From positions 1 to 13,896 of the forward strand of contig WBXG01000046.1 in assembly GCA_008932965.1 (NCBI GenBank): DNA of 13,896 nt. Reading direction: 5' to 3'. A program made the translations under genes and the position numbers. Under the pieces are notes generated by a model. It had not been told where the DNA came from. It worked only from the letters and a program-made list of their open reading frames with translations, and did no database searches. Origin of the DNA: Verrucomicrobiota bacterium. GTDB taxonomy: Bacteria; Verrucomicrobiota; Verrucomicrobiia; Chthoniobacterales; UBA6821. Positions 1 through 13,896 of this stretch are shown here, piece after piece. The first letter of the stretch is position 1. Every line of letters begins with the position of its first letter.

Positions 1-770
1 AGGAAAAAGGAAATTTATTAGTCGCACTCCCGGATGACGGTCTTGCTATTTTACCTGCAGCTGATGATTTTTGTGATGCATTAGCCTCAAGGACACAAGC
101 ACGGGTTCTTCGAGTCGGTATCGGATCGGGAGACTTGCAAGCTACTCATATACTCCCACTAAAAAAAGGAATGGAATTTCAAGTCTCTTACCAAGGAGAA
201 AGACTTCCAGGGTTCTTGCCAGTGATAGGAGCCCATATGGTCCATAATGCGTTATTTGCACTTGCTGTTGGACTAGAATGTGGAATTCCTTTTCAAGAAG
301 GAGTGGCTCTTCTTGAGAAACTACATCCCTCAGAGAGTAGGCTGCAGCTTTATGAATTTGGAGAGATCACACTTGTGGATGATTGTTATAATGCCAGTCC
401 AGATTCTATGGAAGCAGCATTGACCTCTATTGCTTCATTAAAAGCTCACAGGAGAATCGCTCTTCTAGGATGTATGGGTGAGTTGGGGGACTATACGTTG
501 AAAGGATACGAACGTGTCGGTCTCAAAGCCGCTGCACTCATGGATGTGTTAATTGTAGTTGGTGATGAAACTCTTCCTCTTGCAGAGGTAGCACGTGATG
601 CAGGAATGAAAGAGGTCCATCATGTGAGCAACAACAATGAAGCGACAAAGCTCATTTCCTCATTCCTATGTGCTGGAGATATTCTTCTTATCAAAGGGAG
701 CAAGCGTGCTTATCTCAACCAGGTTTCAGAGGCAGTAAGAGCGCTGTGCCAACAGCACGAACCCGAATGA
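1..770 (+). CDS. murF: UDP-N-acetylmuramoyl-tripeptide--D-alanyl-D-alanine ligase (MurF), 5'-truncated by the window edge
   Basis: The reading frame (codon phase from nt 3) is open from the window edge to TGA at 768-770. The TTG at 135 in the ORF track is internal. It carries Mur-ligase C-terminal motifs 'LVDDCYNASPDSM' and 'LLGCMGELG', and sits directly upstream of mraY as in dcw clusters. Confidence 0.9.
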   Translation, partial: EKGNLLVALPDDGLAILPAADDFCDALASRTQARVLRVGIGSGDLQATHILPLKKGMEFQVSYQGERLPGFLPVIGAHMVHNALFALAVGLECGIPFQEGVALLEKLHPSESRLQLYEFGEITLVDDCYNASPDSMEAALTSIASLKAHRRIALLGCMGELGDYTLKGYERVGLKAAALMDVLIVVGDETLPLAEVARDAGMKEVHHVSNNNEATKLISSFLCAGDILLIKGSKRAYLNQVSEAVRALCQQHEPE

Positions 771-784
771 AATAGGCGGGCTAG
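765..784. repeat. Possible solitary repeat-family terminus (GAATGAAATAGGCGGGCTAG) overlapping the murF stop codon, followed by the palindrome CGGGCTAGCCCG
   Basis: About 16 of 19 positions match the right-type terminus of copy E1 (1021-1039, TATAAAATATTCGGGCTAG). It ends in CTAG like E1. It is short and degenerate, so it could be chance. Confidence 0.35.
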
Positions 785-856
785 CCCGGCCTCGAAAAGT
801 TTTTATGTTCTATTTCTCATTTTCATTCACGTTTTTAAGATCATCGGTTACTCTTT

Positions 857-1039
857 GGCCCAAATATTTCATACCGATTACCTGCGGAGACTGGGAAGCA
901 AGGGTGGATGCTGCATTAGACTCCCATTTTGACTTGGGCAGTATGCACTCCTACAGCCCTGTGTTAAAATACTTGCCCTCCATGCTCTTTCAGCCTTCAC
1001 TGCCTCCTCGTCATCATTAGTATAAAATATTCGGGCTAG
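857..1039 (+). mobile_element. MITE-like non-autonomous element, copy E1 (short type, about 183 bp)
   Basis: The left end GGCCCAAATATTTCATACCGATTA (857-880) is an imperfect inverted repeat of the right end ATTAGTATAAAATATTCGGGCTAG (1016-1039). The interior aligns with copies at 13703-13887 and (reverse complement) 12684-12954, for example CTGCGGAG.CTGGGAAGC..G.TGGATGCTGC and the central hairpin GGCAGTATG..CTACAGCC at 937-958. There is no coding capacity conserved between copies. Confidence 0.8.
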
Positions 1040-1066
1040 GAGATTCTTTCTAACACCTCTTTATTC

Positions 1067-2188
1067 ATGCTCTATTATCTTTATCAACTAAGTGAACTTT
1101 TTCACGGTAGTGACGTCGCAAAAGCATTTCATGTTTTTCAGTATATTTCGTTTCGAGCTATGGGGGCGGGCCTCTCTGCTTTTCTATTCTCTCTTTTTTT
1201 TGGAAAATCAGTTATCAAGCGCCTCATCGAACTTCGTTTGGGTCAGCCGATTCGTACAGCTGAAGATTTAAATCGTACGTTTGCTCTGCATGAAGATAAA
1301 CAGGGAACTCCAACGATGGGTGGGATTTTGCTCGTCGGTTCCGTGCTCTTTTCTACTCTGATTTGGGCTCGCCTGAATAATCCATTGATCTGGATTTCAT
1401 TTTTTACGGCAGCTTATTTAGGAGCTTTAGGATTTTTCGATGATTACCTCAAGGTGACAAAAAAAAAATCAGCTGGCATTAGTAGTCGACACAAATTTTT
1501 ACTTCAATCGTTACTTGCTGCCATTGTGACGCTTGCTTTTATTTTCATTCCTTCCTTATCAGTTCAAGCTCAAGAACTCTACGTTCCCTTTTTAAAAGGA
1601 CCTCTCATTACTCATCTTGGTATTGCAGCTACTTTTCTATTTTATCTTTTAGTCATTGTTGGGAGTTCTAATGCCGTTAATATCACCGACGGTCTTGATG
1701 GCTTGGCTGCTGGTTGTACTGTCATGGCTGCCTTTGCCTACGCTGTTTTTACCTATCTAGCAGGTAACCTCAAAGTGGCTACCTACCTTCAAATACCACA
1801 TAATCTTTACTCAGGAGAGCTCTCTATTGTGAGTATGGCCCTAGCCGGTGCTGCGCTCGGCTTTCTCTGGTGGAACTGTCATCCTGCCCGTGTTTTTATG
1901 GGTGACACTGGATCCCTTGCCATTGGTGGACTCCTTGGAGTTCTCGCTATTAGCTGCAAGCAAGAAATTTTACTCATGCTGGTTGGAGGTGTTTTCGTTG
2001 CAGAAGCTCTTTCCGTTATTTTACAAGTAGCAAGTTTCAAGCTTACCGGACGTCGTATTTTTAAAATGTCACCACTACATCACCATTTCGAATTAAGTGG
2101 ATGGAAGGAGTCGACTGTCACGATTCGGTTTTGGATTATGGCTATCGTCTTAGGAATCATTGGTCTTGTAACGTTAAAGCTGAGATAA
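1067..2188 (+). CDS. mraY: Phospho-N-acetylmuramoyl-pentapeptide transferase (MraY)
   Basis: A 373 aa polytopic membrane protein with MraY signatures 'NAVNITDGLDGLA', 'MGDTGSLAIGG' and 'SPLHHHFE', in dcw context between murF and murD. Confidence 0.97.
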   Translation: MLYYLYQLSELFHGSDVAKAFHVFQYISFRAMGAGLSAFLFSLFFGKSVIKRLIELRLGQPIRTAEDLNRTFALHEDKQGTPTMGGILLVGSVLFSTLIWARLNNPLIWISFFTAAYLGALGFFDDYLKVTKKKSAGISSRHKFLLQSLLAAIVTLAFIFIPSLSVQAQELYVPFLKGPLITHLGIAATFLFYLLVIVGSSNAVNITDGLDGLAAGCTVMAAFAYAVFTYLAGNLKVATYLQIPHNLYSGELSIVSMALAGAALGFLWWNCHPARVFMGDTGSLAIGGLLGVLAISCKQEILLMLVGGVFVAEALSVILQVASFKLTGRRIFKMSPLHHHFELSGWKESTVTIRFWIMAIVLGIIGLVTLKLR

Positions 2189-3544
2189 GTGATGAACTAC
2201 CTAGGAAAAAAATGTGTTGTGTTAGGTTTGGGTAAAAGTGGCCTTGCCGCAGCTCGATTACTCTCTGAAAAAGGGGCTATTGTTTCTATTGTCGATAGTA
2301 GCAATTCAAAATCACTCCAAGAAAAGAGAACGTTATTATCCTCAAAAAAAATAAAAGTATATCTCGGTGCTGCAGCACACAACGATCCTACCCATTACGA
2401 TGTGGCAATCTTGAGTCCGGGAATAGAACCGACTTCCCCACTTGTGATGAATGTCACTCGAAAAGGGACTCCTTTATTAGGGGAGCTGGAGCTGGCTTGT
2501 TCTTTTACTTCTAGACCTATCATTGCCATTACTGGCACCAATGGAAAAACAACAACAACGGAATTAACCACACGAGCACTTCAGGGTTCAGGATTGCGTC
2601 CTATTGCTTGTGGTAATATTGGACTTCCTTTTTCAGAGGCTGTTCTCCTGAGTGATGATCTGGATCTTTTTGTCATTGAGGTAAGTTCTTTTCAATTGGA
2701 GGGAATAGAAACATTTCATCCCCATGTTGCCGTTTGGTTGAACCTCACGCCTAATCACCTTGACCGTTATCAAAGCATGGAAGAATACCGTAATGCAAAA
2801 CTACGCATTTTCAAAAATCTTCATGAGAATGATATTGCCGTGCTTCCTTTCTCCTTTAATAGGGCATCTGCAGGAATAAAAGCACGCTGTATTACCTTTA
2901 GTACAACTACTCAGGATGCTGATTTTTCTTTTGCTAACGATCTTCTTTTTTATCAACACAAACCATTCCTTAATATCCAAGAGACACAATTGCGAGGTCT
3001 TCACAATGTGGAGAATCTTATGGCAGCTTTTGCTGTTGGGGTAGCTCTGGGAAAGCCTCTAGAGTCTATGTGCGAGGCAATCAAAGATTATACCCCACCA
3101 GAACATCGTTGTGAGAGGGTTGCAGAGAGCGAGGGAGTAATCTGGATCAATGATTCCAAGTCAACAACACTTGATTCCTTAGAGAAAGCCATACTCTCTA
3201 TTGAAAAATCACATCCTATTATTTTAATTGCTGGGGGTAAAAATAAAGGATCCTCGTTTCAACCCCTTCTTCCATTAATTCAGGAGCGTGTCAAAGCGGC
3301 AATCCTCATCGGAGAATTAAAACAATCCATCGCATGCGAGTGGAATGCAATTCGCTCCTATCAGTCAGACAGTTTGGAAGAGGCTGTTACCAAGGCTCAC
3401 GAGCTTGCTATGGCAGGAGATACCATTTTGTTTTCTCCAGGAACCTCTTCCTATGATATGTTTACCGATTATCAAGAGAGAGGAAACTCCTTTAAAAAAG
3501 CTGTTGCGTTAACAGTCAATCGTGAAGCAACCAGGAAGATGTAA
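2189..3544 (+). CDS. murD: UDP-N-acetylmuramoylalanine--D-glutamate ligase (MurD)
   Basis: A 451 aa protein with N-terminal 'GLGKSG' fold, P-loop 'GTNGKTTT', and 'NDSKSTT' and 'SPGTSSYDMF' motifs typical of MurD. The start is either GTG 2189, abutting the mraY TAA, or ATG 2192. Confidence 0.95.
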   Translation: MMNYLGKKCVVLGLGKSGLAAARLLSEKGAIVSIVDSSNSKSLQEKRTLLSSKKIKVYLGAAAHNDPTHYDVAILSPGIEPTSPLVMNVTRKGTPLLGELELACSFTSRPIIAITGTNGKTTTTELTTRALQGSGLRPIACGNIGLPFSEAVLLSDDLDLFVIEVSSFQLEGIETFHPHVAVWLNLTPNHLDRYQSMEEYRNAKLRIFKNLHENDIAVLPFSFNRASAGIKARCITFSTTTQDADFSFANDLLFYQHKPFLNIQETQLRGLHNVENLMAAFAVGVALGKPLESMCEAIKDYTPPEHRCERVAESEGVIWINDSKSTTLDSLEKAILSIEKSHPIILIAGGKNKGSSFQPLLPLIQERVKAAILIGELKQSIACEWNAIRSYQSDSLEEAVTKAHELAMAGDTILFSPGTSSYDMFTDYQERGNSFKKAVALTVNREATRKM

Positions 3545-3571
3545 CGACTGGATCAAAAAACAAACTGAGTC

Positions 3572-3742
3572 TTAACACGCCTATTTCATACCGATTCTGC
3601 TGCGGCTTGCGAACACCTGATGGATACTACGTCAGCCTCGAATTGCTCCTCGGGCAGTATGAAACATACAGCTGTCGTCGCAATCCATCACCTTCGTTGA
3701 CTCGCTCGCTCCCGCTCGTCTCGCCCTTTCAGGGCTGCCACC
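3572..3742 (+). mobile_element. MITE-like element, copy E2 (long type, right portion missing)
   Basis: The left terminus is TTAACACGCCTATTTCATACCGATTC (3572-3597). The sub-terminal block CTGCGGCTTGCGAACACCTGATGGATACTA is shared with the copy at 10445-10553. The central hairpin lies at 3653-3672. A 34-nt block at 3696-3729 is a perfect inverted match to 12796-12829. The copy stops abruptly at the TTAA (3743-3746) that begins copy E3. Confidence 0.75.
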
Positions 3743-3927
3743 TTAACCCGGATATTCATGTTCCATTTATTACTTCTTGTGAAAAACTCTATGATTACAG
3801 CGTTGTTTTCGAATTGTGATTTGGGCGGTATAGGTACATACTGCACAAGTCAAAATATAAATCTAACGCTCCATCCAGCTGGCGTCCCGGCCTTTGTTGT
3901 CGATTTATTATGAAATATTCGGGCTAA
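3743..3927 (-). mobile_element. MITE-like element, copy E3 (short type, 185 bp, opposite orientation)
   Basis: Termini are TTAACCCGGATATTCATG (3743-3760) and TTATTATGAAATATTCGGGCTAA (3905-3927). The reverse complement aligns with E5 and E1 over the first 105 nt or so (GGCCGGGA.GCCAG.TGGATG, hairpin at 3824-3844). Confidence 0.75.
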
Positions 3928-3984
3928 AATCTTCATTCCTATAAAATCTCTCCCCATGCGTTCACTATTCAATCACCCAAAGCT

Positions 3985-4638
3985 ATGAAATCATCCTCAT
4001 CGAAACGTCCTCTTCGAGCAAAAGCCTCGACTATTAATCCCGCTGAATTTGAAGACTATGGACCAGAGCCAAATATGAAGCTCTCCCATGCCTTTATGGT
4101 TGTCCTAGCTCTTCACATTATTGCTGTAGGTGGACTGTTTGCGTTCAACAAACTCAAAGCAAGCCATGCCCCATTTTCATTAAAGTCAAAAGCAGAACAC
4201 CTTTCTGATCAAGAATCTCCTAGTTCTAAGGTGATATCCAACAAGTTATCTCACGCCTCTGCCGTGAATACTACGAATGTGCCAACAGTGGCCTCTCATC
4301 AGCAAACACAGGCTCCTGCCCCTGTTAATATAGCAGCACCAGTTGTGCAAGCTCCAGTGGCTCAGCAGCCCTCTGGAATAAATCAAAATCCTCCTCCAAA
4401 TCCAAGTTCTCCTCCTCCAGTAGCTGCACCTTCTCCAGAGGAGGCTGCCAAGGTATCTTCTCAAGAAACTTTCAAAGAGTATACGATTGTAAAAGGGGAC
4501 AACCCTTACAAATTAGCGAAAAAATTTCATGTCAATTATGAAGAACTCATGAAGGTGAACAATATTTCAGATCCTAGAAAAATTCAGATTGGTCAGAAAT
4601 TAAAAATCCCTGCCAAAGCTATTGTAAAAAGTAAATAG
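3985..4638 (+). CDS. Bitopic membrane protein with a Pro/Gln/Ala-rich linker and a C-terminal LysM peptidoglycan-binding domain (no catalytic domain recognised)
   Basis: A 217 aa protein. It has a basic N-terminal tail, one predicted TM helix ('AFMVVLALHIIAVGGLFAF', nt about 4090-4146) and a low-complexity linker ('APAPVNIAAPVVQAPVAQQPSGINQNPPPNPSSPPPVAAPSP'). A canonical LysM domain, 'YTIVKGDNPYKLAKKFHVNYEELMKVNNISDPRKIQIGQKLKIP', spans nt 4480-4611. An alternative start is ATG 4075. Confidence 0.8.
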   Translation: MKSSSSKRPLRAKASTINPAEFEDYGPEPNMKLSHAFMVVLALHIIAVGGLFAFNKLKASHAPFSLKSKAEHLSDQESPSSKVISNKLSHASAVNTTNVPTVASHQQTQAPAPVNIAAPVVQAPVAQQPSGINQNPPPNPSSPPPVAAPSPEEAAKVSSQETFKEYTIVKGDNPYKLAKKFHVNYEELMKVNNISDPRKIQIGQKLKIPAKAIVKSK

Positions 4639-4811
4639 GTAAAAACGGGGCTGGTGAGGAGCATGCAACTAGTTTTGAGAAATTTATTTTGATAAACAAT
4701 CTATAGTATGATTCATTGCCATCCTTGTCTGCATCAGCCGTTGCAGCCTCTTCATGACACTTTAGTATGAACTATAAGGTCTAAGAGCTCCCTGTACTCT
4801 CATTGCTATCC

Positions 4812-5957
4812 ATGCAACGTAATTCGATCTATCTCCTTCTTCTATCTGTTGTAGCCTTGATTGCGCTTGGAGTAGTGATGCTTTTTAGCACAAGTGCTTT
4901 TGCTCAAGATAGCCATGGAGATATTTATTATTTTGTGAAAAGGCAGTTGCTATGGCTTGGAATCGGGATCATCGCTTGTGTCTTAACCTCCTTGACCGAC
5001 TACCATTGGTGGCGTCGGACATGGATGTTCTGGTTTGGAATCGCGCTGATACTTCTCCTGCTTTGTTTTGTTCCCCATATTGGTATGCGCATTAACGGCT
5101 CTCATCGGTGGTTGAACCTTCATGTAGCTGCATTTCAACCGAGTGAACTTGGAAAAGTAGCAGCTGTTTTTTTCTTAGCATGGTGGTTTTCACGAGAGGA
5201 AATTAAGGAGGGAGGATGTTTTCAAACACTCGTCATTCCGCTCTCTATTTTAGCTCTTCCGATGGGACTCATTGCTGCTGAAGTTGATTTAGGAACAACA
5301 GCATTAATTGGGGTAACAGCGCTTGCGATGATGTTCGTGGGTGGTACTCGTAAACGTTATCTTTTTCCAATATTGGGAGCTGGTATCGCTGGCCTCATTG
5401 GCTTGATTTATCTGATTCCAGAACGTGCTGCACGCATGATGACATTCTTGCACCCGGAATCTGATAAATTGGGCAAAGGCTTGCAACAATGGCAGGCCCT
5501 CATTGCTTTTGGTTCAGGGGGTATTGAGGGACTTGGATTGGGAGAAGGAAGGCAAAAAATGCTTTATCTTCCTTATGCTCATACTGATTTTATTTTTCCA
5601 ATGATTGGGGAGGAATTAGGACTGAGAGCCACATGGGGAGTGATATTCTGCTACCTTCTTATTCTTCTTTGTGGAGGTCTTATTGCGGCCAATGCTCGCG
5701 ACCGTTTTGGAAAATTGTTAGCTACAGGGCTTATTCTTCTCGTAACACTGCAGGCTATTATCAATATTGGAATGACGATCTCCTTTTTGCCAAACAAGGG
5801 AATGCCACTCCCTTTTATTAGCTATGGAGGAACGAATCTAGCTGCATCACTTTTTATGATTGGTATCTTAATCAACATTCATCAAAGGGGTATCCCTATA
5901 ACACGTTCTGAGGAGGAATCTGTTGTATTGGGAGGCAGAGCCATCCCTCGTTTTTAA
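4812..5957 (+). CDS. ftsW: SEDS-family peptidoglycan glycosyltransferase / lipid II flippase-type division protein FtsW
   Basis: A polytopic membrane protein with SEDS motifs 'QPSELGK', 'AHTDFIFPMIGEELG' and 'GMPLPFISYGGT'. Its position between murD and murG favours FtsW over RodA. I take ATG 4812 as the start; the ORF track starts 3 codons earlier at TTG 4803. Confidence 0.9.
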   Translation: MQRNSIYLLLLSVVALIALGVVMLFSTSAFAQDSHGDIYYFVKRQLLWLGIGIIACVLTSLTDYHWWRRTWMFWFGIALILLLLCFVPHIGMRINGSHRWLNLHVAAFQPSELGKVAAVFFLAWWFSREEIKEGGCFQTLVIPLSILALPMGLIAAEVDLGTTALIGVTALAMMFVGGTRKRYLFPILGAGIAGLIGLIYLIPERAARMMTFLHPESDKLGKGLQQWQALIAFGSGGIEGLGLGEGRQKMLYLPYAHTDFIFPMIGEELGLRATWGVIFCYLLILLCGGLIAANARDRFGKLLATGLILLVTLQAIINIGMTISFLPNKGMPLPFISYGGTNLAASLFMIGILINIHQRGIPITRSEEESVVLGGRAIPRF

Positions 5958-5961
5958 ATAT

Positions 5962-7053
5962 ATGGGAAAATATTTTGTTATTGCATGTGGTGGTACCGGT
6001 GGTCATCTCTTTCCTGGATTAGCCGTTGCTGAGGTGTTGCATGAACGAGGTCATGAAATTCTTTTGCTTGTTTCAGAAAAAGAAATCGATGCAATTGCGT
6101 TAAAAAATTATCCTGAATTCCGCGTTGAAAAACTCCCTTCCATTGGAATGCCTTCGCGTATATCACCAGCATTTATTCGATTTTTGCGTCGTGCTTGGGA
6201 GAGCTTTTCGCATTGTCGACAACTCTATCGTCGTTATCGACCAGCAGCTATTTTAGGAATGGGTGGATTTACATCAGCAACTCCAATATTAGCTGCCCAT
6301 TTTTTGAATATTCCCTCCTATATTCACGAATCTAATGCCATTGCTGGCAGAGCTAATCGATTAACAGCACGATGGGTTAGCAAGGTTTTACTTGGCTTTG
6401 AAGCATGTGCCTCTTTTTTTCCTAAAAGTAGATACGCTTTGACTGGAACACCGGTAAGACGAGATCTTGGAGAGCGATTATTACGTGAAGATGCTCTAGA
6501 AAAATTCAAATTATCTCCTGATCGCCACACCATTTTAGTAATGGGAGGAAGTCAAGGTGCTGCGCAAATTAATCAAATTCTTTTTAAATCAGTCTCCTTA
6601 CTCAAAGAGCTCCCAATACAGATCATCCATTTAACTGGAGAGCAAGATGACCATCTTGCCGCAATCAATTATCAACGAGAAGGCATTCATGCCTATGTGG
6701 CCTCTTTTTATCATCACATGAACGAGGCCTATTCTGCAGCTGACTTTGTGATTTCAAGAGCTGGGGCTGCAAGCTTGAGTGAAATTTCTCATTTCGGCCT
6801 TCCCTCGCTCCTCATTCCTTTTCCATTTGCTGCAGAGCAACATCAACATCGGAATGCTGCTATTTTCCAACAAGCAGGTGCTGCAGAAGTTTTAGAAGAA
6901 TCAGAAATTACTCCTGAAATTTTAGTTCGACTCATTACTAATTTATTTGATGACTCGGCACGACGCGAGAGAATGGCTCATGCAGCATCACTGATTTTAC
7001 CACGTCATGCAGCAGAAGCAGTTGCTGATGTTATGGAGGGAAAAACAATTTAA
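5962..7053 (+). CDS. murG: UDP-N-acetylglucosamine--N-acetylmuramyl-(pentapeptide) pyrophosphoryl-undecaprenol GlcNAc transferase (MurG)
   Basis: Motifs 'ACGGTGGHLFPGLAVA', 'MGGSQGA' and 'ISRAGAASLSE'. ATG 5962 gives the usual short N-terminus before GGTGGH. An alternative start, TTG 5923, is preceded by AGGAGG (5911-5916) and would overlap ftsW by 35 nt. Confidence 0.95.
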   Translation: MGKYFVIACGGTGGHLFPGLAVAEVLHERGHEILLLVSEKEIDAIALKNYPEFRVEKLPSIGMPSRISPAFIRFLRRAWESFSHCRQLYRRYRPAAILGMGGFTSATPILAAHFLNIPSYIHESNAIAGRANRLTARWVSKVLLGFEACASFFPKSRYALTGTPVRRDLGERLLREDALEKFKLSPDRHTILVMGGSQGAAQINQILFKSVSLLKELPIQIIHLTGEQDDHLAAINYQREGIHAYVASFYHHMNEAYSAADFVISRAGAASLSEISHFGLPSLLIPFPFAAEQHQHRNAAIFQQAGAAEVLEESEITPEILVRLITNLFDDSARRERMAHAASLILPRHAAEAVADVMEGKTI

Positions 7054-7075
7054 CCCAAATATTTCACACTCAATC
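7050..7075 (+). repeat. Solitary repeat-family terminus filling the whole murG/gltA convergent gap
   Basis: TTAA-CCCAAATATTTCACACTCAATC matches the left-type termini of E1 (GGCCCAAATATTTCATAC) and E5 (ACACGGATATTTCACACTAATC). No partner end or interior follows it. Confidence 0.65.
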
Positions 7076-8214
7076 TAAAACCGCTGACTTATTGGAATGA
7101 CTTTTTTCCCCTCGGCAGGGCCAATATACTCACTCAGAGGACGGTAAATCCTGTTGTCAGCGAGCTGCTCCAAAATATGAGCTGTCCATCCTGCAGTGCG
7201 GGCAATGGAAAAGACAGGGGTGAACATGTCGGTAGGAAGTCCTAGAGAATAATAGACGATGGCTGAGTAAAAATCGACGTTGGCATTAAGTCCTTTTTTT
7301 TCTTTCATTATGGAGGCAATACGTTCTGCCATTTTCATCCACTTAGTTTCGCCTAGACGTTCGCACATTTGAATGCCCATAGCACGAAGGTGGGGAGCTC
7401 GTGGGTCAAGTGTCTTATAAACACGGTGCCCTATTCCCATAATTTTCTTTTTTTCCTCTAATGTTTTGGTCACCCATGCATCGACGTGAGATTCCTCCCC
7501 AATTTCTTGAAGCATATGAATCACTCCTTCATTAGCACCTCCATGAAGAGGTCCTTTGAGTGTTCCAATAGCAGAGGTAATGGCTGAATAAATATCAGTT
7601 AATGTAGAAACGGTCACCCGTGACGAAAAGGTAGAGGCATTCATCCCATGATCAGCATGAAGAACATAGCAGACATCAAGGGTCTCAGCTGCTTCCTGAG
7701 TCGGAATTTCTCCTTGAAGTAGGTAGAGAAAATGCTCGGCTTCCGTGAGATCCTTGTTGATGGGTGGGAGATCTTTCCCTTGACGTGCCCGATGATAATA
7801 AGCCGCAATCACACTCATTTTAGCAGTAATAGAAGCAGCACGAAGATGTTTGAAGTGATCCGTTTTATTGAGTAAATCATGAGCCCCTTCACTGTCATAA
7901 AGTCCTAACATCGAAATTCCCGTGCGAAGAACATCCATGGGATTGGCATTCTTAGGTGCTGAGAGAATAAAATGAATGATTCCCTCTGGAAGTTCACGTT
8001 GATGAGCTAGCTCTTCATGAAGCGCCAGCAATTCTGTTGCAGTCGGCAATCTTCCATACCAGAGGAGGTGAATGACCTCCTCAAAGCTCACCTGACCTGC
8101 TAGTTCATTGATATTGTAACCAACGTAGGAAAGTGTACCCTCTTCACCACGAACGTCGCTCAGTGACGTACTGTTGGCGATAATTCCTTCAAGTCCTTTA
8201 GCTGTGATAGGCAT
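7075..8214 (-). CDS. gltA: Citrate synthase (short, about 380 aa type)
   Basis: A 379 aa protein with citrate synthase signatures 'GHRVYKTLDPRA' and 'LHADHGMNASTF' and a C-terminal 'RPLSEYIGP'-type region. Confidence 0.95.
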   Translation of the reverse strand: MPITAKGLEGIIANSTSLSDVRGEEGTLSYVGYNINELAGQVSFEEVIHLLWYGRLPTATELLALHEELAHQRELPEGIIHFILSAPKNANPMDVLRTGISMLGLYDSEGAHDLLNKTDHFKHLRAASITAKMSVIAAYYHRARQGKDLPPINKDLTEAEHFLYLLQGEIPTQEAAETLDVCYVLHADHGMNASTFSSRVTVSTLTDIYSAITSAIGTLKGPLHGGANEGVIHMLQEIGEESHVDAWVTKTLEEKKKIMGIGHRVYKTLDPRAPHLRAMGIQMCERLGETKWMKMAERIASIMKEKKGLNANVDFYSAIVYYSLGLPTDMFTPVFSIARTAGWTAHILEQLADNRIYRPLSEYIGPAEGKKVIPISQRF

Positions 8215-8285
8215 TATTGAAAAAAAGTAGAGGGTAACGAGTCTAGGGTGAAAGGTTTTTTGTAACGTATTCTAAAAACTAATAA

Positions 8286-9173
8286 CTACTTTTTCCCAAG
8301 CAAGGAGAATAGCGTCTCTGCAATATCAGCAGGACTTTCCGCCACAGCAATGCCTGCAGCGTGCAGGGCCTCTTTTTTTCCATGAGCTGTCCCGCTCGAG
8401 CCTTGAATAATGGCTCCAGCATGTCCCATACGACGACCTTCTGGGGCTGTGGCACCAGCAATGAATGCAGCGATTGGTTTTTTACAATGTTCTTTGGCCC
8501 AGAGAGCAGCCTCTTCTTCCTCGGAGCCTCCAATTTCACCAATCATAATGATGGCCTCTGTCTCTGGATCATTATTAAAGAGGCGAAGAGCTTCAGTTTG
8601 CGTCATTCCATGAATAGGATCTCCCCCAATACCAATGCAGGTTGATTGTCCTATTCCTCGTGAGGTGAGTTGCCACACGGCTTCATAGGTGAGGGTTCCA
8701 GATCGAGAGACAACTCCAACCGGTCCTGGTTTATGAATATAGCCAGGCATAATACCAATTTTACATTGGCCTGGGGTAATAATCCCAGGACAATTTGGAC
8801 CAATAAGAACAGGGGTATTTTTTGAAAATGTTGCTAAAATTGCCTTCACTCGCATCATATCGTGGACCGGAATACCCTCTGTAATACAAACGATCAGCTC
8901 CATTCCCGCGTGGGCTGCCTCCAAAATAGCATCTGCAGCACCCGCAGCAGGAACAAAAATCATGGTAGCATTACAGCCTGTCTCTTTTCGTGCTTCATCA
9001 ACCGTATCAAAAATAGGAATCGTTTCATCAAGGAGCTCTCCACCTCGTCCTGGAGTGACCCCTGCTACGAGATCTGTTCCATAATCACGACAACTACGTG
9101 CATGGAAAGCTCCTGCTTTTCCTGTGATTCCTTGAACAAGAAGACGTGTGTTTTTATCAACAAGGAGAGACAT
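8286..9173 (-). CDS. sucD: Succinate--CoA ligase subunit alpha (SucD)
   Basis: Motifs '[11 protein letters not shown]', '[10 protein letters not shown]', 'SRSGTLTYE' and the phosphohistidine loop 'MGHAGAII'. I place the start at ATG 9173 ('[15 protein letters not shown]'), 4 nt after the sucC stop. The 23-codon extension in the ORF track (to 9242) overlaps sucC and has no homologue-like sequence. Confidence 0.95.
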
Positions 9174-9177
9174 GGAT

Positions 9178-10389
9178 TTAGTGAGTAGAAATTGGATGGT
9201 TGGAAAAAGAAGCTGCTGCAGCAACGACCCTTTGAGCAGCATCTGTCAAGTCTGTTGCAGCTTGAAGAGGAAGTTGGGATTCACGAAGTAACTTTTTCCC
9301 TTGCTCTACATTGGTACCTTCAAGACGGACAACTAGGGGGACTGAGAGTTTTGTAGTCTTAAAAGCATTAATAATTCCTTGTGCAATGATATCACAGTGC
9401 ATAATACCGCCAAAAATATTTACTAGGATCGCTCGGACCTTAGGGTCTTGAGACAAAATTTTAAAAGCCTCTGTGACCTGGTCTTCTGTAGCACCTCCTC
9501 CTACATCGAGGAAATTAGCTGGTTCACCGCCGTGATGCTTAATGATGTCCATCGTGGCCATGGCAAGTCCTGCCCCATTTACCAGGCATGCAATATCTCC
9601 TTCTAGACCGATATAGTTGAGATGAAAAGTAGAGGCGACGACTTCACGGGGATCTTCTTCAGCTGTATCGCGCAAAGCGGCAATATTCTCATGACGAAAG
9701 AGAGCATTTTCATCAAAACTTAATTTTGCATCCAGGGCAAACACCTCTCCTGATGTGGTCAGTACAAGGGGATTAACCTCGACCATCATGCACTCGGATT
9801 GCTCAAAGAGATGATAGAGATTTGAGATTAACTTACTGGCAGATAAAAATTGTTTTCCACGGAAGCCAAGACGTCGAGCAATGTTACGGCTTTGATAAGG
9901 CTGCAAGCCGAGAAGGGGATGAACAGCTTCTCTCCAGATCTTTTCCGGCGATTCTGCTGCAACTGTTTCAATGTCGACCCCTCCCTCAGTACTCGCAATA
10001 ATCATGGGAGCTGCACTCTTACGATCAAGTACAATGGCGAGGTAATATTCTTTGGAAATCTCGACCGATTCTGCGATGAGAACTTTACTAACTAATTTCC
10101 CTTCAGGTCCTGTTTGGTGAGTAACAAGAGTATTCCCAAGCATCTTGTGAGCTACCTCACAAGCTTCCTCTGCAGTTGTGACAATATGTACTCCACTACG
10201 AAGACCATTAGTAAAAGTTCCCATGCCACGTCCTCCAGCATGAATCTGAGCTTTGACCACAAATGTTTTATTTATAAAGCTAGAAGCAATATTCTTTGCC
10301 TCCTCATGTGTGGTAATCACGGCACCTTTTGGTGTCATAACACCAAAAAATTCAAAAAGTTGTTTCGCTTGGTACTCGTGAATATTCAT
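9178..10389 (-). CDS. sucC: Succinate--CoA ligase subunit beta (SucC)
   Basis: A 403 aa protein with the canonical N-terminus '[12 protein letters not shown]', an ATP-grasp region with 'HAGGRG', and '[10 protein letters not shown]'. It lies immediately upstream of sucD. Confidence 0.95.
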
Positions 10390-10444
10390 GAAGCTTGTAA
10401 ATTACACAAGCGTGAGCACCATGGAAAGTAGAATAGATAGGTTA

Positions 10445-10553
10445 GGGGGGCGGTTCTGATGTTCGAATGATTTAGTACTAGTACGGTGATAGACATAGTA
10501 TCCGTCAGGTGTTCGCAAGCCGCAGAAGAACCAGTATGAAATATCCGGGTTAA
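10445..10553 (-). mobile_element. MITE-like element, copy E6 (truncated, about 110 bp, only one terminus present)
   Basis: The reverse complement reads TTAACCCGGATATTTCATACTGGTTCTTCTGCGGCTTGCGAACACCTGACGGATACTATGTC. This is near-identical to 3572-3632 of E2. No second terminal repeat occurs before the sucC start. Its terminal TTAA (10550-10553) contains the stop codon of the PBP gene. Confidence 0.7.
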
Positions 10554-12502
10554 AATTCTCCTGCCGGATACCGATCTGCTGCCGGTGACTCCATAAAATC
10601 GACCCAAATAGGAAGTGCAAGTTCGGCTCCATAGCCCCCTCGCATGATGGTTTTAGGTTGATCAAAGCCGACCCAAACACCGCAGGTAAGACCTTGAGTG
10701 AAACCAAGAAACCAGGCATCAAAAAAATGATCGGTGGTGCCAGTCTTGCCTGCCGCTAGCTTCTTAAGTCCCAAGGAGCTAGCACGGGAGGCAGTCCCTT
10801 CAGTAAGGACTTTTTCTAAAATCGAGGTGGTGATTCGCGTCGCAGCTGGATCAAGGATGGGAAGGCGTCCGCGTGTCGCCAGAAAAAGAATTTTTCCATC
10901 GGCGTCGGTGACTTGTTCAATGAAATGAGGTTGCAAGCGACCTCCACCCGTGGCAAGGGCTGTGTAAGCAGCAGTGATATTGCGAAGTGTAGATTCAAAA
11001 CTCCCCAAACAAATGGAAGGGTAGGGAGGGATTTTTTCAGCTAAGCCCAGGTGCTCGAGTGTGGTGGCTACATTTTTTAATCCTGCCCCTATCCCAACAC
11101 GCACGCTCATAGTGTTACGTGAGTGAATGAGCCCCTGACTTGCAGGTAGCCATTCATGAAAAGTCCCATCGCTATTTTGAGGATGATAATTTTTAAAACC
11201 TTCTGGAAGTTCGCTTGAGGTGAGCGGCGCATCGTTCACCAGCGATTCTGGTGTCATTCCTTGTCGGAAAGCTTCCTCATAAACAAAGGGCTTAGCTGCA
11301 GAGCCCACTTGGCGGAGTGCAGTCGTAGCACGGTTATACTTACTTGTTTTATAATCACGCCCGCCGACGATTGCCACAATACCGCCGCTACTATTATCGA
11401 TTGCTAGGAGAGCCCCTTGTAGTGGAGCTGTTTTTTCTTCTCTTTGAACAGGATCTTTTTTCTTGCTAGAGCTCGACATCTTATTTTTAGGAGGAGAATG
11501 CTGATCTTGGAAATCACTCCTCTTTTCAATCTCTGCAAGGTTCCAGGCGAGAGATTTCTCAGCTGTATGCTGAAGTCCTGGATCAATAGTCGTCATAATA
11601 TGAAGGGGCCCAGCTTCCATTTTTTCGGGAGGAAGCACTTGATTGAGTTCATGGAGAATAGCATCAACCGCCCAGCTATTTTGAAAATGGAGCAAACGAT
11701 TGGAGGGTGGCTCTATCTTTTCATTCAGAGCTTTGGAATGTTCCTCTTGTGTAATGAGGTTAAGTTCTTCCATTCGTCTGAGCACAAGGGCCTGCTGCTG
11801 CAGTGCTCCCGGGAGATTATTGTAGGGAGAGAGATGATTGGGGCTTCGAATGAGTCCTGCCAGAAGTGCTCCTTGGGCTAATGTCATCTGAGAAGCAGGT
11901 CTATTGAAATAGGCTTGACTGGCAGATTCAACACCATAGAGCCCAGGACCAAAATAGATCCGATTCATATAGAGCTCTAAAATCTTTTCTTTAGAGAGTT
12001 CTGTTTCAATACGAAAAGCCATGGCGGCTTCAAGTAACTTGCGATTCAGGTTGTGTCCCCCAAGTGGAAAACTATTTCGAGCAAGTTGCTGTGTGATGGT
12101 GCTTCCTCCTTGCCTGATCCCGCCAAGAAAAAGATTTCGGGCAGCTGCCCGAGCTATACCGATGGGATCAACACCATGGTGCTCATAAAAACGGGCATCT
12201 TCTCGGCTAATCAAGGCATTGACAAAATAGTTGGAGACTTTTTCAAATGGAACAATTTGTCGATTTTCTCCACCGGCAAGACTATAAACTTTTCCATAAC
12301 GATCATAGATGAGCGAGCGTTGGGACATCTGGCCAATTTTGGAAAGATCATAGGTAAGTGCCCATAGATAATAAAATGAGGCAATCAAAGACCAAATCAG
12401 CAAAAGAGAGAAAGAAAATTTAAATAACGTTGCAACAGAGAAGCATCGTTTGCTTTGTTTTTTTTTGGACGTTTTTTTTGAGGGAGGATGGTGAGGACGC
12501 AT
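10550..12502 (-). CDS. mrcA: Class A (bifunctional glycosyltransferase/transpeptidase) penicillin-binding protein, PBP1A-like
   Basis: A 650 aa protein with a basic N-terminal tail and a TM anchor. GT51 motifs are 'EDARFYEHHGVD', 'GGSTITQQLARN', 'RKLLEAAMAFRIE' and 'KEKILELYMNRIYFG'. Transpeptidase motifs are 'SAAKPF' (SxxK), 'SRN' (SxN) and 'KTGTT' (KTG). Confidence 0.9.
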   Translation of the reverse strand: MRPHHPPSKKTSKKKQSKRCFSVATLFKFSFSLLLIWSLIASFYYLWALTYDLSKIGQMSQRSLIYDRYGKVYSLAGGENRQIVPFEKVSNYFVNALISREDARFYEHHGVDPIGIARAAARNLFLGGIRQGGSTITQQLARNSFPLGGHNLNRKLLEAAMAFRIETELSKEKILELYMNRIYFGPGLYGVESASQAYFNRPASQMTLAQGALLAGLIRSPNHLSPYNNLPGALQQQALVLRRMEELNLITQEEHSKALNEKIEPPSNRLLHFQNSWAVDAILHELNQVLPPEKMEAGPLHIMTTIDPGLQHTAEKSLAWNLAEIEKRSDFQDQHSPPKNKMSSSSKKKDPVQREEKTAPLQGALLAIDNSSGGIVAIVGGRDYKTSKYNRATTALRQVGSAAKPFVYEEAFRQGMTPESLVNDAPLTSSELPEGFKNYHPQNSDGTFHEWLPASQGLIHSRNTMSVRVGIGAGLKNVATTLEHLGLAEKIPPYPSICLGSFESTLRNITAAYTALATGGGRLQPHFIEQVTDADGKILFLATRGRLPILDPAATRITTSILEKVLTEGTASRASSLGLKKLAAGKTGTTDHFFDAWFLGFTQGLTCGVWVGFDQPKTIMRGGYGAELALPIWVDFMESPAADRYPAGEF

Positions 12503-12573
12503 TTTTAGTGGCGTATAATTCCTGGAAATAGAGTGTAACTACCAAAATAGTACGTGAAGTTGGTGAGAAAACT

Positions 12574-12597
12574 TTACCCGGACATTTCACACTAAAC
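12574..12597 (+). repeat. Solitary or degenerate repeat-family terminus
   Basis: TTTA-CCCGGACATTTCACACTAAAC matches the E5 left end (CACGGATATTTCACACTAATC) at about 18 of 21 positions. The following 85 nt or so show only faint family similarity (ATGGAGC), so this is probably a decayed copy. Confidence 0.55.
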
Positions 12598-12683
12598 TCC
12601 GTTATTGAGAATAGCAATGGAGCTATCTATAATGAACTATCATTTTCTAAAAAATCAGGGAATTCTGCATGCTTCATGCTGCC

Positions 12684-12954
12684 TAACCCGGATATTTCAT
12701 ACTGATCGTGACGAGGAGGCCGCGAAGGCTGATGGGGCACCACCGGCGGTCGGAGACCGCTGGGGAGACTGCCCTGGCTTTAGGGGGCAGCCCTAAAAGG
12801 GCGAGACGAGCGGGAGCGAGCGAGTCAACGCAGACGAGTATTCTGACGACGGCTGTATGAGTCCATACTGCCCGAGGAAGACTTCGAGCTTGGGCGCAGC
12901 ATCCATCTGGCTTCCCGGCTTCCGTAGTAGATCAGTATGAAATATTCGGGTTAA
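12684..12954 (-). mobile_element. MITE-like element, copy E4 (long type, 271 bp, best-preserved copy)
   Basis: The termini TAACCCGGATATTTCATACTGATC (12684-12707) and GATCAGTATGAAATATTCGGGTTA (12930-12953) are inverted repeats matching at 23 of 24 positions. The interior shares blocks with E1, E2 and E5. It carries a G+C-rich core; by hand count, 51 of 69 nt at 12710-12778 are G/C. Confidence 0.85.
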
Positions 12955-13004
12955 CCCAGAGCCGTTTAGTGAATGAAAAGAATTTTTAAAAAAATGATAT
13001 TTTT

Positions 13005-13724
13005 ATGATGATCTCTTCAAACACTCAATTCGCTGCTCCTTTGAGTATAGAAATCCTGACCCCTTTTCCAGGAATTTGTCACGGAGTGCTCGGGGAGAGT
13101 ATGTTAAAACGGGCTCAAACGCTAGGGTTAGTAAAACTAGAGGCAGTAGATTTGCGCGCTTGGGCAACAGATAAACATCATACCCTTGATGCCCCTTCTT
13201 ATGGTGGAGGGCCCGGAATGGTCATGAAAATTGAGCCTATTGCTGCAGCACTGAAATCACTACGCGGTCCAAAGAGCAAGGTGATCTTTATGTCACCTCA
13301 AGGAAAACGCTTCGATCAATCGATAGCTCGCTCCTTATCCCAAGAGCAGCATCTCATTTTTCTATGTGGGCATTATGAAGGGATCGATCAACGCATCATA
13401 GATCATCTCGTCGATGAAGAAATTTCTATCGGTGATTATGTCTTAACCAATGGTGCATTAGCAGCACTTGTGGTGACCGATGCTGTCGTGCGACTTCTTC
13501 CTGGAGTTTTAGGAGATGAGGGGTCAGCACTCCATGATTCTTTTGAAAAGGGACTGCTCGACTTTCCTCATTATACCCGTCCTGAAGACTTTAATGGTTG
13601 GACTGTTCCGTCAGTTCTACTTTCTGGTAATCATGCTGCCATTGCCACTTGGCGAGAGGATCAAGCCCTGCATGCCACAGCAAAAAAAAGACCTGATTTG
13701 CTGAACACGGATATTTCACACTAA
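13005..13724 (+). CDS. trmD: tRNA (guanine37-N1)-methyltransferase (TrmD)
   Basis: A 239 aa protein with TrmD/SPOUT motifs 'YGGGPGMVMK', 'LCGHYEGIDQR', 'SIGDYVLTNG', 'HYTRP' and 'VPSVLLSGNHA'. The start is ATG 13005 or 13008. The last 7 codons or so and the stop lie inside the terminal repeat of copy E5. Confidence 0.95.
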   Translation: MMISSNTQFAAPLSIEILTPFPGICHGVLGESMLKRAQTLGLVKLEAVDLRAWATDKHHTLDAPSYGGGPGMVMKIEPIAAALKSLRGPKSKVIFMSPQGKRFDQSIARSLSQEQHLIFLCGHYEGIDQRIIDHLVDEEISIGDYVLTNGALAALVVTDAVVRLLPGVLGDEGSALHDSFEKGLLDFPHYTRPEDFNGWTVPSVLLSGNHAAIATWREDQALHATAKKRPDLLNTDISH

Positions 13725-13887
13725 TCTACTGCGGAGGCCGGGAAGCCAGATGGATGCTGCGATAGACTCACATTTTGTTTGGACAGTATGTACACATACA
13801 GCCCGGCATCCCAATCCTTCGCCCGCCTTGTACTAATAAGCTTTGCACGGCGCCTCATGACGATTCAGTATGAAATATCCGGGTTAA
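13703..13887 (+). mobile_element. MITE-like element, copy E5 (short type, 185 bp)
   Basis: The left end GAACACGGATATTTCACACTAATC (13703-13726) is an inverted repeat of GATTCAGTATGAAATATCCGGGTTAA (13862-13887). The interior CTACTGCGGAGGCCGGGAAGCCAGATGGATGCTGCG is near-identical to the reverse complement of 12895-12932. The central hairpin lies at 13781-13803. Confidence 0.8.
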
Positions 13888-13896
13888 ATATTTTTG

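Follow-up and report, generated by a model that had tools for sequence, protein, structure and literature searches.

Miniature elements with IS1380-type ends between the cell-wall genes of a verrucomicrobial cluster

The window examined here, a 13,896-nucleotide stretch of contig WBXG01000046.1 from a Verrucomicrobiota bacterium, covers an essential and tightly packed dcw/TCA gene neighbourhood, and one palindromic repeat recurs in its spacers. What kind of element is this repeat, what would move it, and how can it accumulate among genes of this kind? An earlier note, made from the sequence alone, had described a terminal motif present at least 13 times in both orientations, and our count agrees: the 11-nt terminal core ATATTTCAYAC has 13 matches in the window at ≤1 mismatch (expected, 0.44; shuffle maximum, 3), although the match at 3657–3667 represents an element's central motif and not an end. 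The 21-mer CCCGGATATTTCATACTGATC likewise has five matches at ≤3 mismatches, compared with none in 200 shuffles. Four elements in the window are complete (177–264 nt), three copies are truncated and three ends stand alone; together they make up about 60% of its intergenic DNA, which bears out the density that the note had reported. The window holds at least 10 pieces, and 5 others lie farther upstream on the contig. The copies in the window are as follows.

765–784, minus strand: weak degenerate solo terminus GAATGAAATAGGCGGG with CTAG, overlapping the murF stop codon (768–770)
855–1039, plus strand: complete 177-nt element (859–1035) in the murF–mraY spacer, flanks TTGG/CTAG
3572–3742, plus strand: truncated long-form copy, left flank TTAA (3572–3575), terminus from 3576, right half absent
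3743–3927, minus strand: complete 177-nt element (3747–3923), flanks TTAA/CTAA, found by nhmmer
4711–4784, plus strand: degenerate right-end fragment (4711–4780) and CTAA (4781–4784) in the LysM–ftsW spacer
7050–7078, plus strand: 21-nt solo terminus (7054–7074), constituting the entire murG/gltA spacer
10492–10553, minus strand: truncated copy, terminal ~57 nt (10493–10549) and TTAA (10550–10553), found by nhmmer
12573–12601, plus strand: solo terminus CCCGGACATTTCACACT (12577–12593), flank TTTA
12683–12954, minus strand: complete long-form element of 264 nt (12687–12950), flanks CTAA/TTAA
13702–13887, plus strand: complete 178-nt element (13706–13883), flanks TGAA/TTAA, nhmmer E=3.6e-49

All four paired elements lie where the earlier note had placed them. 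Its one-ended copy at 3572–3742 was recovered (3576–3742), whereas that at 10445–10553 was found only as a shorter homologous part, 10492–10549 (nhmmer profile positions 1–57, E=1.6e-7; repeat pair I1, 85% over 67 nt with 3567–3633). Two of its solitary ends stand, 7054–7074 and 12577–12593, the latter with ≤3 mismatches to the terminus and a weak nhmmer score (E=0.07); the third, which it had called possible, is weak (765–780), with 3 mismatches in the 16-nt terminus and no report by nhmmer; as a terminus it is detected at ≤3 mismatches in the same contig (L109 9714-). The fragment at 4711–4780 (profile positions 109–175, E=2.2e-5; family D4) is absent from that note. The element at 859–1035 matches the full profile (E=6e-41), belongs to repeat families D2–D4 and I4/I7, and is 77% identical to copies from Chthoniobacterales MAGs. 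The truncated copy at 3572–3742 (profile positions 7–145, E=1e-22) is 91% complementary to the interior of 12776–12833 (I2), shows 90–93% identity with the L060/L061 copies, and adjoins the element at 3743–3927, with which it has TTAA in common, a tandem or nested insertion; tandem layouts with a shared target duplication are also found in L051, L061 and L083. The long element at 12687–12950 is 83.5% identical over 273 nt to a copy in L069 and 81% identical to another copy on the same contig, and its 24-nt arms are 96% complementary (I12). The element at 13706–13883 is 90% identical over 58 nt to 12895–12952 (I3).

Each copy is a long imperfect palindrome, with a modal length of 176–178 nt and a second form of about 260–280 nt. 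The two forms can be aligned, as had been suggested, the longer one (264 nt) having about 90 nt of interior in addition to what makes up the ~176-nt form. The ends are terminal inverted repeats (TIRs) of about 17 bp, CCCGGATATTTCAYACT, whose arms of ~17–24 nt are 96–100% complementary (I12, I14 and I19) and which vary little or not at all among 40 copies. A central motif, GGGCAGTATG-N5-CATACAGCC, is conserved as well as the termini across subfamilies. Neither the elements nor the whole window have coding capacity for, or homology to, a transposase. Small size (177–264 nt), TIRs, no transposase, a target-site duplication (TSD), dispersed copies and differences in occupancy between relatives are all found here, and the repeats are a non-autonomous mobile family of the miniature inverted-repeat (MITE) kind that shares its ends with IS1380-family insertion sequences (ISs). 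They are a new family within a well-known kind of element; in the literature searched, no published description of the repeat or its terminal sequence was found.

Copies also occur elsewhere. Related Chthoniobacterales MAGs contain many members of the family, and its terminus is met again throughout Verrucomicrobiota, there enclosing different interiors. In loci that were chosen because they held a match, there are 42 matches in 126 kb of Kiruna_bin-02438 and 23 in 61 kb of Tobar2m-G38, and the interiors of these MAG copies are 77–94% identical to those of the window. A relative at the congeneric level, L124 (MraY 87% and FtsW 88% identical), differs from the window at three sites. Its murD–LysM spacer is empty and 53 bp long, compared with 440 bp and two elements in the window; its murF–mraY copy has the opposite orientation; and at the murG stop TTAA it carries a full 177-nt element (14644–14820) where the window has only the 21-nt solo end. 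Given that occupancy and orientation both differ, these sites are not fixed regulatory DNA. An exact empty site could not be aligned, since DNA identity to the closest relative is about 76%.

The flanks of the elements point to the manner of insertion. At 154 element ends across the loci the flanking tetranucleotide is YTAR, as had been noticed in the window, and the earlier note had left undecided whether TA or YTAR is duplicated. Our data favour the 4-bp YTAR. In 32 of 69 copies the 4-mer on the left is the same as that on the right, compared with 13.1 by permutation (maximum, 24 in 10,000), and when both flanks are YTAR, 31 of 44 pairs are identical (14.8 expected); a non-consensus pair that also matches, GTAA/GTAA, occurs in L100. 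The outer positions of the 4-mer agree between the two sides in 51/69 and 56/69 copies, where about half would be expected, and because these positions co-vary the duplication is of 4 bp and not of TA. Identity of the flanks drops from 60% to 37% with decay of the TIRs.

Duplication of 4-bp, YTAR-like targets is typical of the IS5 group. Flanks of the YTAR type in which the central TA is invariant would suit the partners that the note had considered, a YTAR-duplicating IS5-family transposon or a TA-duplicating IS630/Tc1-mariner one, but the co-variation of the outer positions speaks against TA duplication and the full-length elements speak against both. The longer, transposase-bearing copy with the same termini that the note had advised seeking does exist, as five distinct full-length ISs of 1.75–1.8 kb (CCCGGATATTTCATA… termini, YTAR flanks), and all five encode IS1380-family transposases (PF13701/NF033539). 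In L041, an 1801-bp element (4916–6716) has CCCGGATATTTCATACTGG at both ends and CTAG on both sides, and its ORF matches PF13701 (E=2.7e-97) and NF033539 'IS1380 family transposase' (E=1.6e-72). In L063, a terminus lies about 400 bp upstream of a homologous ORF. Three of the five (P0087, P0046 and P0106, in L114–L123; ~1752–1785 bp) were retrieved by protein homology alone and have CCCGGA[TA]ATTTCATAG-type termini and YTAR flanks. Between MITEs and ISs, 15–18 nt are identical at both ends (L041, L063, L114–L123). A partner from the IS5 or IS630 family is disfavoured, since every full-length element found with these termini belongs to the IS1380 family, and we regard it as very improbable.

All eight IS copies have YTAR flanks, and the flanking 4-mers are identical in three of them (L041, L118 and L119/L120); the mismatches in the others could stem from recombination, from chimeric assembly over a 1.75-kb repeat or from some other, unexplained cause. 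Inside, the small elements share nothing with the ISs found, the common part being the ~16-nt termini only. The note's view of the repeats as MITEs stands, but an origin of their interiors by internal deletion of these ISs is ruled out, as there is no homology beyond the TIR. The window, the 31-kb contig and about 190 kb of loci drawn from the two MITE-rich MAGs yielded no transposase with these termini, so that evidence for the partner comes only from other Verrucomicrobiota and from metagenomes.

With high confidence, we take the best explanation to be an IS1380-type MITE family that is moved in trans by an IS1380-family transposase and duplicates a 4-bp YTAR site. On the basis of the shared termini, a DDE transposase of this family, encoded by the 1.75–1.8 kb ISs, would mobilise the MITEs in trans. 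Integration would proceed through a 4-nt staggered cut at YTAR (TTAA, CTAG, CTAA or TTAG), and the site would be duplicated on both sides of the insert.

On a different reading, the repeats would be functional non-coding DNA that is fixed in place, such as a structured RNA, a terminator or attenuator, or a REP-like protein-binding site. The DNA fold of 12687–12950 (−73.4 kcal/mol, z=−9.0) indicates strong hairpin potential, the elements lie inside operons and are presumably transcribed, the window and L124 are both occupied at the murG-stop site, and the transposon model does not explain why the central motif is as conserved as the termini. However, no Rfam match was obtained at E≤1, the RNAalifold consensus (−1.32 kcal/mol) has essentially no structure beyond the invariant TIRs, the TIR pairs never co-vary, and only 2 pairs in all show compensatory change. 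Terminator-like and promoter-like sites do not exceed the shuffled expectation, a single weak terminator-like site (3878–3891) lying inside an element. Copies also stand in both orientations relative to the flanking genes, have target-site duplications, share their termini with transposase-encoding ISs, and vary in occupancy and orientation between relatives. A fixed functional element is thus highly unlikely, while exaptation of individual copies is possible and compatible with mobility. Given their placement in the operon, the elements are probably transcribed by read-through.

Whether anything still moves the MITEs in this lineage is a separate matter. The copies on the window's contig are only 75–81% identical to one another, several are truncated or reduced to solo ends, and no insertion polymorphism exists among five same-species assemblies at 99.5% identity. 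They therefore look old, and the family may no longer be active in the source genome. That the elements, correctly classified, are inert fossils of a family extinct in this lineage has, in our estimate, slightly less than an even chance: no transposase turned up in the DNA sampled from the MITE-rich MAGs, but the search covered about 23 kb of the source genome and MAGs typically lose IS contigs, and the lineage-specific differences from L124 indicate activity after that split.

The IS1380-type MITE model also bears on how the spacers filled. Element ends are often placed on stop codons, which the duplication regenerates. In the window, TTAA at 7050–7053 holds the murG stop and CTAA at 7075–7078 the complement of the gltA stop; TTAA at 10550–10553 is the stop codon of the minus-strand PBP1a gene (ORF 10550–12502); and the left terminus of 13706–13883 contains the trmD stop (13722–13724) and the last ~6 codons (ORF 13005–13724). 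YTAR carries a stop codon on both strands, so insertion exactly at the stop of a gene regenerates the stop and is harmless, which helps to explain the accumulation in almost every spacer without gene breakage. Selection probably lies behind these positions.

Copies also occur inside genes. The 176-nt form plus the 4-bp TSD amounts to 60 codons, and the consensus has one stop-free frame per strand. While no in-frame copy lies within the window, 10 of 75 small elements are in frame inside genes, five of them with Pfam or orthologue support, in addition to murD of L124, whose product has an exact 60-residue insert. Other in-frame inserts occur in GlnD (L094), PBP1A (L069) and a low-molecular-weight phosphatase (LMWPc, L083). 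Database matches to the encoded peptide were short ORFs only.

Comparison with known systems places the family as follows. The full-length elements have the transposase of the IS1380 family (IS1380, IS1247 and ISEcp1; PF13701 DDE_Tnp_1_4, NF033539) and are like its members in size (1.75–1.8 kb), in short TIRs starting with CC and probably in the 4-bp duplication; IS1247 has 1672 bp, IR 16/13 and a 5-bp DR (PMC3281130). The window elements differ from these ISs in being about 10 times smaller, without transposase, and alike at the ~16-nt termini only. They resemble bacterial MITEs (Correia/NEMIS, ERIC, RUP, Nezha and Chunjie; PMC10969869) in being small, TIR-bounded, TSD-flanked and multi-copy, and further in their ability to form hairpins, their mainly intergenic position and their truncated and mosaic variants, but their partner family, IS1380, is a different one. 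Rickettsia palindromic elements (RPEs), also palindromic repeats, enter protein genes in frame and add a conserved peptide (PMC10969869). The in-frame copies in MurD, PBP1A, GlnD and the phosphatase of relatives recall RPEs in behaviour, not in homology; unlike in RPEs, in-frame copies are a minority here, and TIRs, TSDs and a transposase family can be identified. Chunjie is known for an insertion that leaves its operon undisrupted, and the window elements similarly sit in the dcw cluster without disrupting genes.

IS1380 transposases have served as the prokaryotic outgroup of piggyBac (PMC10813416), which the present elements resemble in the 4-bp TTAA-type duplication and CCC...GGG termini, although the target here, YTAR, is looser than TTAA. 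In this comparison, phmmer against the PDB gave no match, and the AlphaFold model was poor (pLDDT 57), its fold matches being without meaning. We offer as a speculation, rather doubtful as a whole, that there is a phylum-wide, piggyBac-like lineage of IS1380-mobilised MITEs whose design would have been shaped for harmlessness (60 codons, stop-free both ways, entry through Leu (YTA), stop regeneration and a 60-residue linker), a free-living counterpart of RPEs that adds segments to MurD, PBP1A and GlnD.

With these results, the repeats that occupy the greater part of an essential gene cluster's non-coding DNA have a name and a mechanism. The results also connect MITEs with the IS1380 family, which comprises the prokaryotic relatives of piggyBac; this pairing is missing from a MITE review that makes no mention of IS1380 (PMC10969869). 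For genome work, the repeats interrupt the assembly of freshwater and soil Verrucomicrobia from metagenomes, and the contig of the window itself stops about 130 bp past one; spurious ORFs of 50–100 aa inside the elements need masking, and 60-residue inserts are to be expected in otherwise conserved proteins of the clade. For the family, the rule is simple: with a YTAR target that carries a stop on both strands, a transposon can saturate a compact operon while its genes survive.

The terminal motif described in the earlier note proved to be truly repeated: a 21-mer taken from it has five matches at ≤3 mismatches, compared with none in 200 shuffles, and its 11-nt core, ATATTTCAYAC, has 13 matches at ≤1 mismatch, compared with 0.44 expected. 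Repeat finding and an nhmmer search with a 40-copy profile recovered all of the paired elements, one-ended copies and solitary ends listed there, one of them weak, and added a degenerate right-end fragment:

859–1035, complete element
3747–3923, complete element
12687–12950 (264 nt), complete element
13706–13883, complete element
3576–3742, truncated copy
10493–10549, truncated copy
4711–4780, degenerate right-end fragment, absent from the earlier note
7054–7074, solo terminus
12577–12593, solo terminus
765–780, weak solo terminus

The genes of the window are arranged as follows:

plus strand, murF (3′ part), mraY, murD, the LysM protein gene, ftsW and murG
minus strand, the genes for citrate synthase, sucD, sucC and a class-A PBP
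plus strand, after the minus-strand genes, trmD

By our own count, element pieces make up about 1.15 kb of the approximately 1.83 kb of intergenic DNA in the window. The part of the contig that precedes the window is similarly occupied, with a copy in nearly every spacer starting ahead of mraZ and ending at murF (1782–2054, 3947, 4390–4561, 6388–6566 and 8102–8260 in L109, the contig from another assembly). The two size forms were also borne out, the 264-nt copy being the ~176-nt form with about 90 nt of additional internal sequence; as DNA, this copy folds far better than its shuffles (z = −9.0). ORFs of 58–71 codons lie wholly or largely within elements (805–1020, 3607–3819 and 12605–12796 in the window, and gene calls at 12577–12753 of L110), and public annotations name such ORFs "hypothetical protein" (31 clusters in the protein database). 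They are probably annotation artefacts.

The 31,347-bp contig JARWZS010000048.1 (GCA_029866255.1) corresponds to the contig of the window, which has been recovered at 99.5% identity from several metagenome assemblies, lake metagenomes (ERZ21931129, ERZ28593824 and JGI 3300043519) among them. Given that the best DNA matches of the window repeats fall in MAGs of Chthoniobacterales ("Spartobacteria"), the source is a verrucomicrobium, with a G+C content of about 44%. The LysM protein, whose middle region is long and Pro/Ala/Gln-rich, has 217 residues in the window (3985–4638) and 220 in the other assemblies (L109 12919–13581), a difference that probably explains why the otherwise 99.5% identical alignment has one gap, of 9 nt. 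The source contig stops about 130 bp past its last element (window 13888–13896 and the contig end), and many scanned MAG contigs likewise end in or beside an element, as would be expected if these repeats interrupt short-read assemblies.

A scan of CCCRRATATTTCAYACT against 185,579 species genomes yielded at least 108 loci. Hundreds of scattered matches would be expected by chance, whereas Verrucomicrobiota account for about half of the matches listed (108 loci); among these, 20 loci came from the MAG Kiruna_bin-02438 and eight from Tobar2m-G38. The window copies are 77–94% identical over their full length to copies in these two MAGs. In Opitutae, Pedosphaerales and Verrucomicrobiales, the same 17-nt terminus follows CTAG, TTAA, CTAA or TTAG and encloses other interiors. 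Tiny elements of 35–39 nt, consisting of two termini and a 2–5-nt loop with YTAR-like flanks, were observed in other Verrucomicrobiota as well as in MAGs that carry the labels Omnitrophota and Planctomycetia (L022 6704–6742, L052 6472–6507, L077 1850–1884 and L092 56–90), and paired ends also occur in the MAG loci L084, labelled Omnitrophota, and L103, labelled Balneolaceae. Viral contigs contained no elements, only two isolated chance-like matches, and thus gave no sign of a phage vector. The terminal sequence was found in none of the papers searched, and the family is apparently undescribed.

A longer element with the same termini enclosing a transposase ORF was found outside the window. In L041, a Pedosphaerales MAG locus, two termini lie 1,801 bp apart (4916–6716) with CTAG on both sides, and the enclosed ORF matches PF13701 (E = 2.7e-97) and NCBIfam NF033539, "IS1380 family transposase" (E = 1.6e-72). 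In a second locus, L063, a terminus precedes the start of a homologous ORF by about 400 bp. As an independent test, homologues of the L041 protein were searched and about 8,000 were scored. The homologues are mostly on contigs of about 2 kb, as expected since ISs break assemblies. Every IS fetched through three of these transposases, P0087, P0046 and P0106, which were picked by protein identity only, has CCCGGATATTTCATAG- or CCCGGAAATTTCATAG-type termini about 1,752–1,785 bp apart with YTAR flanks, and tandem IS copies have one CTAA in common. These shared termini indicate that the ends of the window elements are those of a clade of IS1380-family ISs, and not of the IS630/Tc1-mariner-like or IS5-like partners considered in the earlier note. 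That note had also viewed the interiors as internally deleted derivatives of a DDE-transposase element. The ISs and the small elements showed no likeness beyond the ~16-nt terminus, which rules out simple deletion of the ISs that we found as the origin of the small elements. The window had been reported to lack a transposase gene; indeed, the whole contig yielded none, nor did the DNA sampled from the MITE-rich MAGs.

Whether insertion duplicates TA or YTAR had been left undecided. The flanking 4-mers are identical on the left and right in 32 of 69 paired small elements (permutation mean 13.1, maximum 24 in 10,000). When both sides fit YTAR, 31 of the 44 pairs are identical, compared with 14.8 by permutation; one matching pair, GTAA/GTAA, departs from the consensus. 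Flank identity above the permuted level argues for a duplication of the 4 bp of the YTAR target, and not of TA. This identity drops from 60 to 37% with decay of the termini. We considered a carried donor flap, as in piggyBac-like transposition, as the cause of the non-identical YTAR flanks of small elements and rejected it; mismatches at the inner TA positions are about as common as those at the outer ones and increase with TIR decay, so that ordinary mutation suffices. Among the full-length ISs (L114–L123), the 4-bp flanks are identical in only three of eight copies; each of the other pairs has a single mismatch, in most cases a transition at the outer Y or R. These mismatches may stem from assembly chimeras across the 1.75-kb repeat, from recombination between copies or from the transposition mechanism itself. 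Head-to-tail arrangements of full ISs and of small forms were also observed, often with one common YTAR (L119 145–3657/L120 1903–5415, L051 163–520, L061 5246–5685, L083 2931–3385 and window 3572–3927), as would be expected if the next copy reuses the duplicated target of the preceding one.

Repeats at such density in spacers could instead be a structured RNA or a regulatory repeat. A search of Rfam at a permissive threshold gave no match at E ≤ 1, and RNAalifold predicted essentially no structure from 40 copies (−1.32 kcal/mol); the only consistent pairs were the termini, which never co-varied, as expected of protein-binding TIRs. The copies occur in both orientations relative to the neighbouring genes. 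Neither terminator-like nor promoter-like sites exceeded the shuffled expectation in our scan, in which a single weak terminator-like site fell inside an element (3878–3891). On the other side stands the apex of the palindrome, GGGCAGTATG-N5-CATACAGCC (A1 alignment columns ~83–113, e.g., window 13781–13803 and 933–958), which hardly varies between subfamilies or genera, equals the termini in conservation and includes CAGTATG/CATACAG, resembling the inner TIR. The best sigma-70-like site in the window (12605–12633, TTGAGA-17-TATAAT, 11/12) has a solo terminus on one side and the 264-nt element on the other, with trmD further downstream. Were this promoter active, the trmD leader would include the whole 264-nt element.

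Comparison with L124, a metagenome relative with the same gene order (MraY, FtsW and GltA 87, 88 and 87% identical, respectively), distinguished mobile DNA from fixed regulatory sequence, with occupancy differing at three sites. The murD–LysM spacer is 53 bp in L124 versus 440 bp with two elements in the window. The murF–mraY spacer of L124 holds a partial and a full element, the latter opposite in orientation to that of the window. At the murG stop, L124 has a full 177-nt element and an 80-bp spacer, whereas the window has a 21-nt solo terminus adjoining the gltA stop. The sites differ through insertion, through inversion or independent hits, and through deletion, rather than being conserved as regulatory sequence. 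An exact empty site was not obtained, the nearest relative in the metagenome scan being too divergent to align outside genes. Within the species, occupancy is identical across five assemblies at 99.5% identity. The copies on the contig are only 75–81% identical to one another, and the insertions seen here are therefore old.

One strand of YTAR contains TAR and the other its complement, so that insertion at a stop codon regenerates the stop in the duplication. The stops of murG (7050–7053, beside the solo terminus) and PBP1a (10550–10553) are both TTAA, while those of trmD (13722–13724) and murF (768–770) lie inside a terminus and the weak terminus, respectively. Upstream on the contig, the stops of an ftsL-like gene (L109 4387–4389), ftsI (6385–6387) and murE (8099–8101) are within the duplication. 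Of the 154 YTAR-flanked termini in all loci, 30 adjoin a stop codon that ends an ORF of ≥80 codons, compared with 3.8% of all YTAR sites, a base that is not confined to tolerated sites. We read this placement as a target preference filtered by selection, not as stop-codon targeting. Tolerance of the density of elements in this neighbourhood is partly shown and partly inferred.

Elements also occur in frame within genes outside the window. The 176-nt form and the 4-bp duplication together make 180 nt, and the consensus has exactly one stop-free frame per strand (RIFHTD...DQYEISG), entered via YTA (Leu). In murD of L124, an element lies in frame at 10856–11040, and alignment with MurD of the window, which has no insert, shows one gap of exactly 60 residues (LTRIFHTDLLRRPGRLMDG...EVFGFK), which separates the Mur_ligase_M domain from Mur_ligase_C. 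Of 75 small elements in the loci, ten are within long ORFs that read through them; five such ORFs, from a low-G+C Chthoniobacterales MAG and with Pfam domains in four, are as follows:

L094 3871–4046, GlnD, insert before the ACT domain
L069 292–548, PBP1A, insert between the transglycosylase and transpeptidase domains
L083 5006–5181, LMW phosphatase, Pfam domain split
L060 747–922, TMEM260-like O-mannosyltransferase, Pfam domain present
L011 2312–2487, 866-aa protein, no Pfam match

All five inserts are 2 mod 3 in length and thus, with the 4-bp duplication, add a whole number of codons. The LMW phosphatase orthologue in another MAG (L051 5698–6147) lacks the insert. The stop-free frame is open in 13–14 of 40 copies versus 3–4 in shuffles. 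A search of the element peptide against 5.8 billion proteins returned only 31 short hypothetical ORFs (Verrucomicrobia, Chthoniobacterales) and no long in-frame cases, an outcome that neither supports the in-frame behaviour nor gives its frequency. In-frame insertion of this kind has been described for Rickettsia palindromic elements (PMC10969869).

The partner ISs agree with the IS1380 family in their PF13701/NF033539 transposase, length of about 1.7–1.8 kb, short TIRs starting with CC and, where the flanks are identical, a 4-bp duplication; for IS1247, 1672 bp, IR 16/13 and DR 5 are listed (PMC3281130). IS1380 transposases form the prokaryotic outgroup of piggyBac (PMC10813416), whose target and ends are resembled by the TTAA-type target and CCC...GGG ends of the present family. 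A phmmer search of the PDB for this link gave no match, and an AlphaFold2 model from a shallow 26-sequence alignment had a pLDDT of 57, making its Foldseek matches meaningless. IS1380 is unmentioned in a 2024 review of prokaryotic MITEs (PMC10969869), and our literature search found no paper joining IS1380 and MITEs in Verrucomicrobia. At the sequence level, the small elements have every feature by which MITEs are defined, as the earlier note had correctly sensed. MITEs are an already known kind of element, and this family is not a new kind; it is a real MITE family, widespread in Verrucomicrobiota and now linked to transposases of the IS1380 family and to a YTAR duplication of 4 bp.
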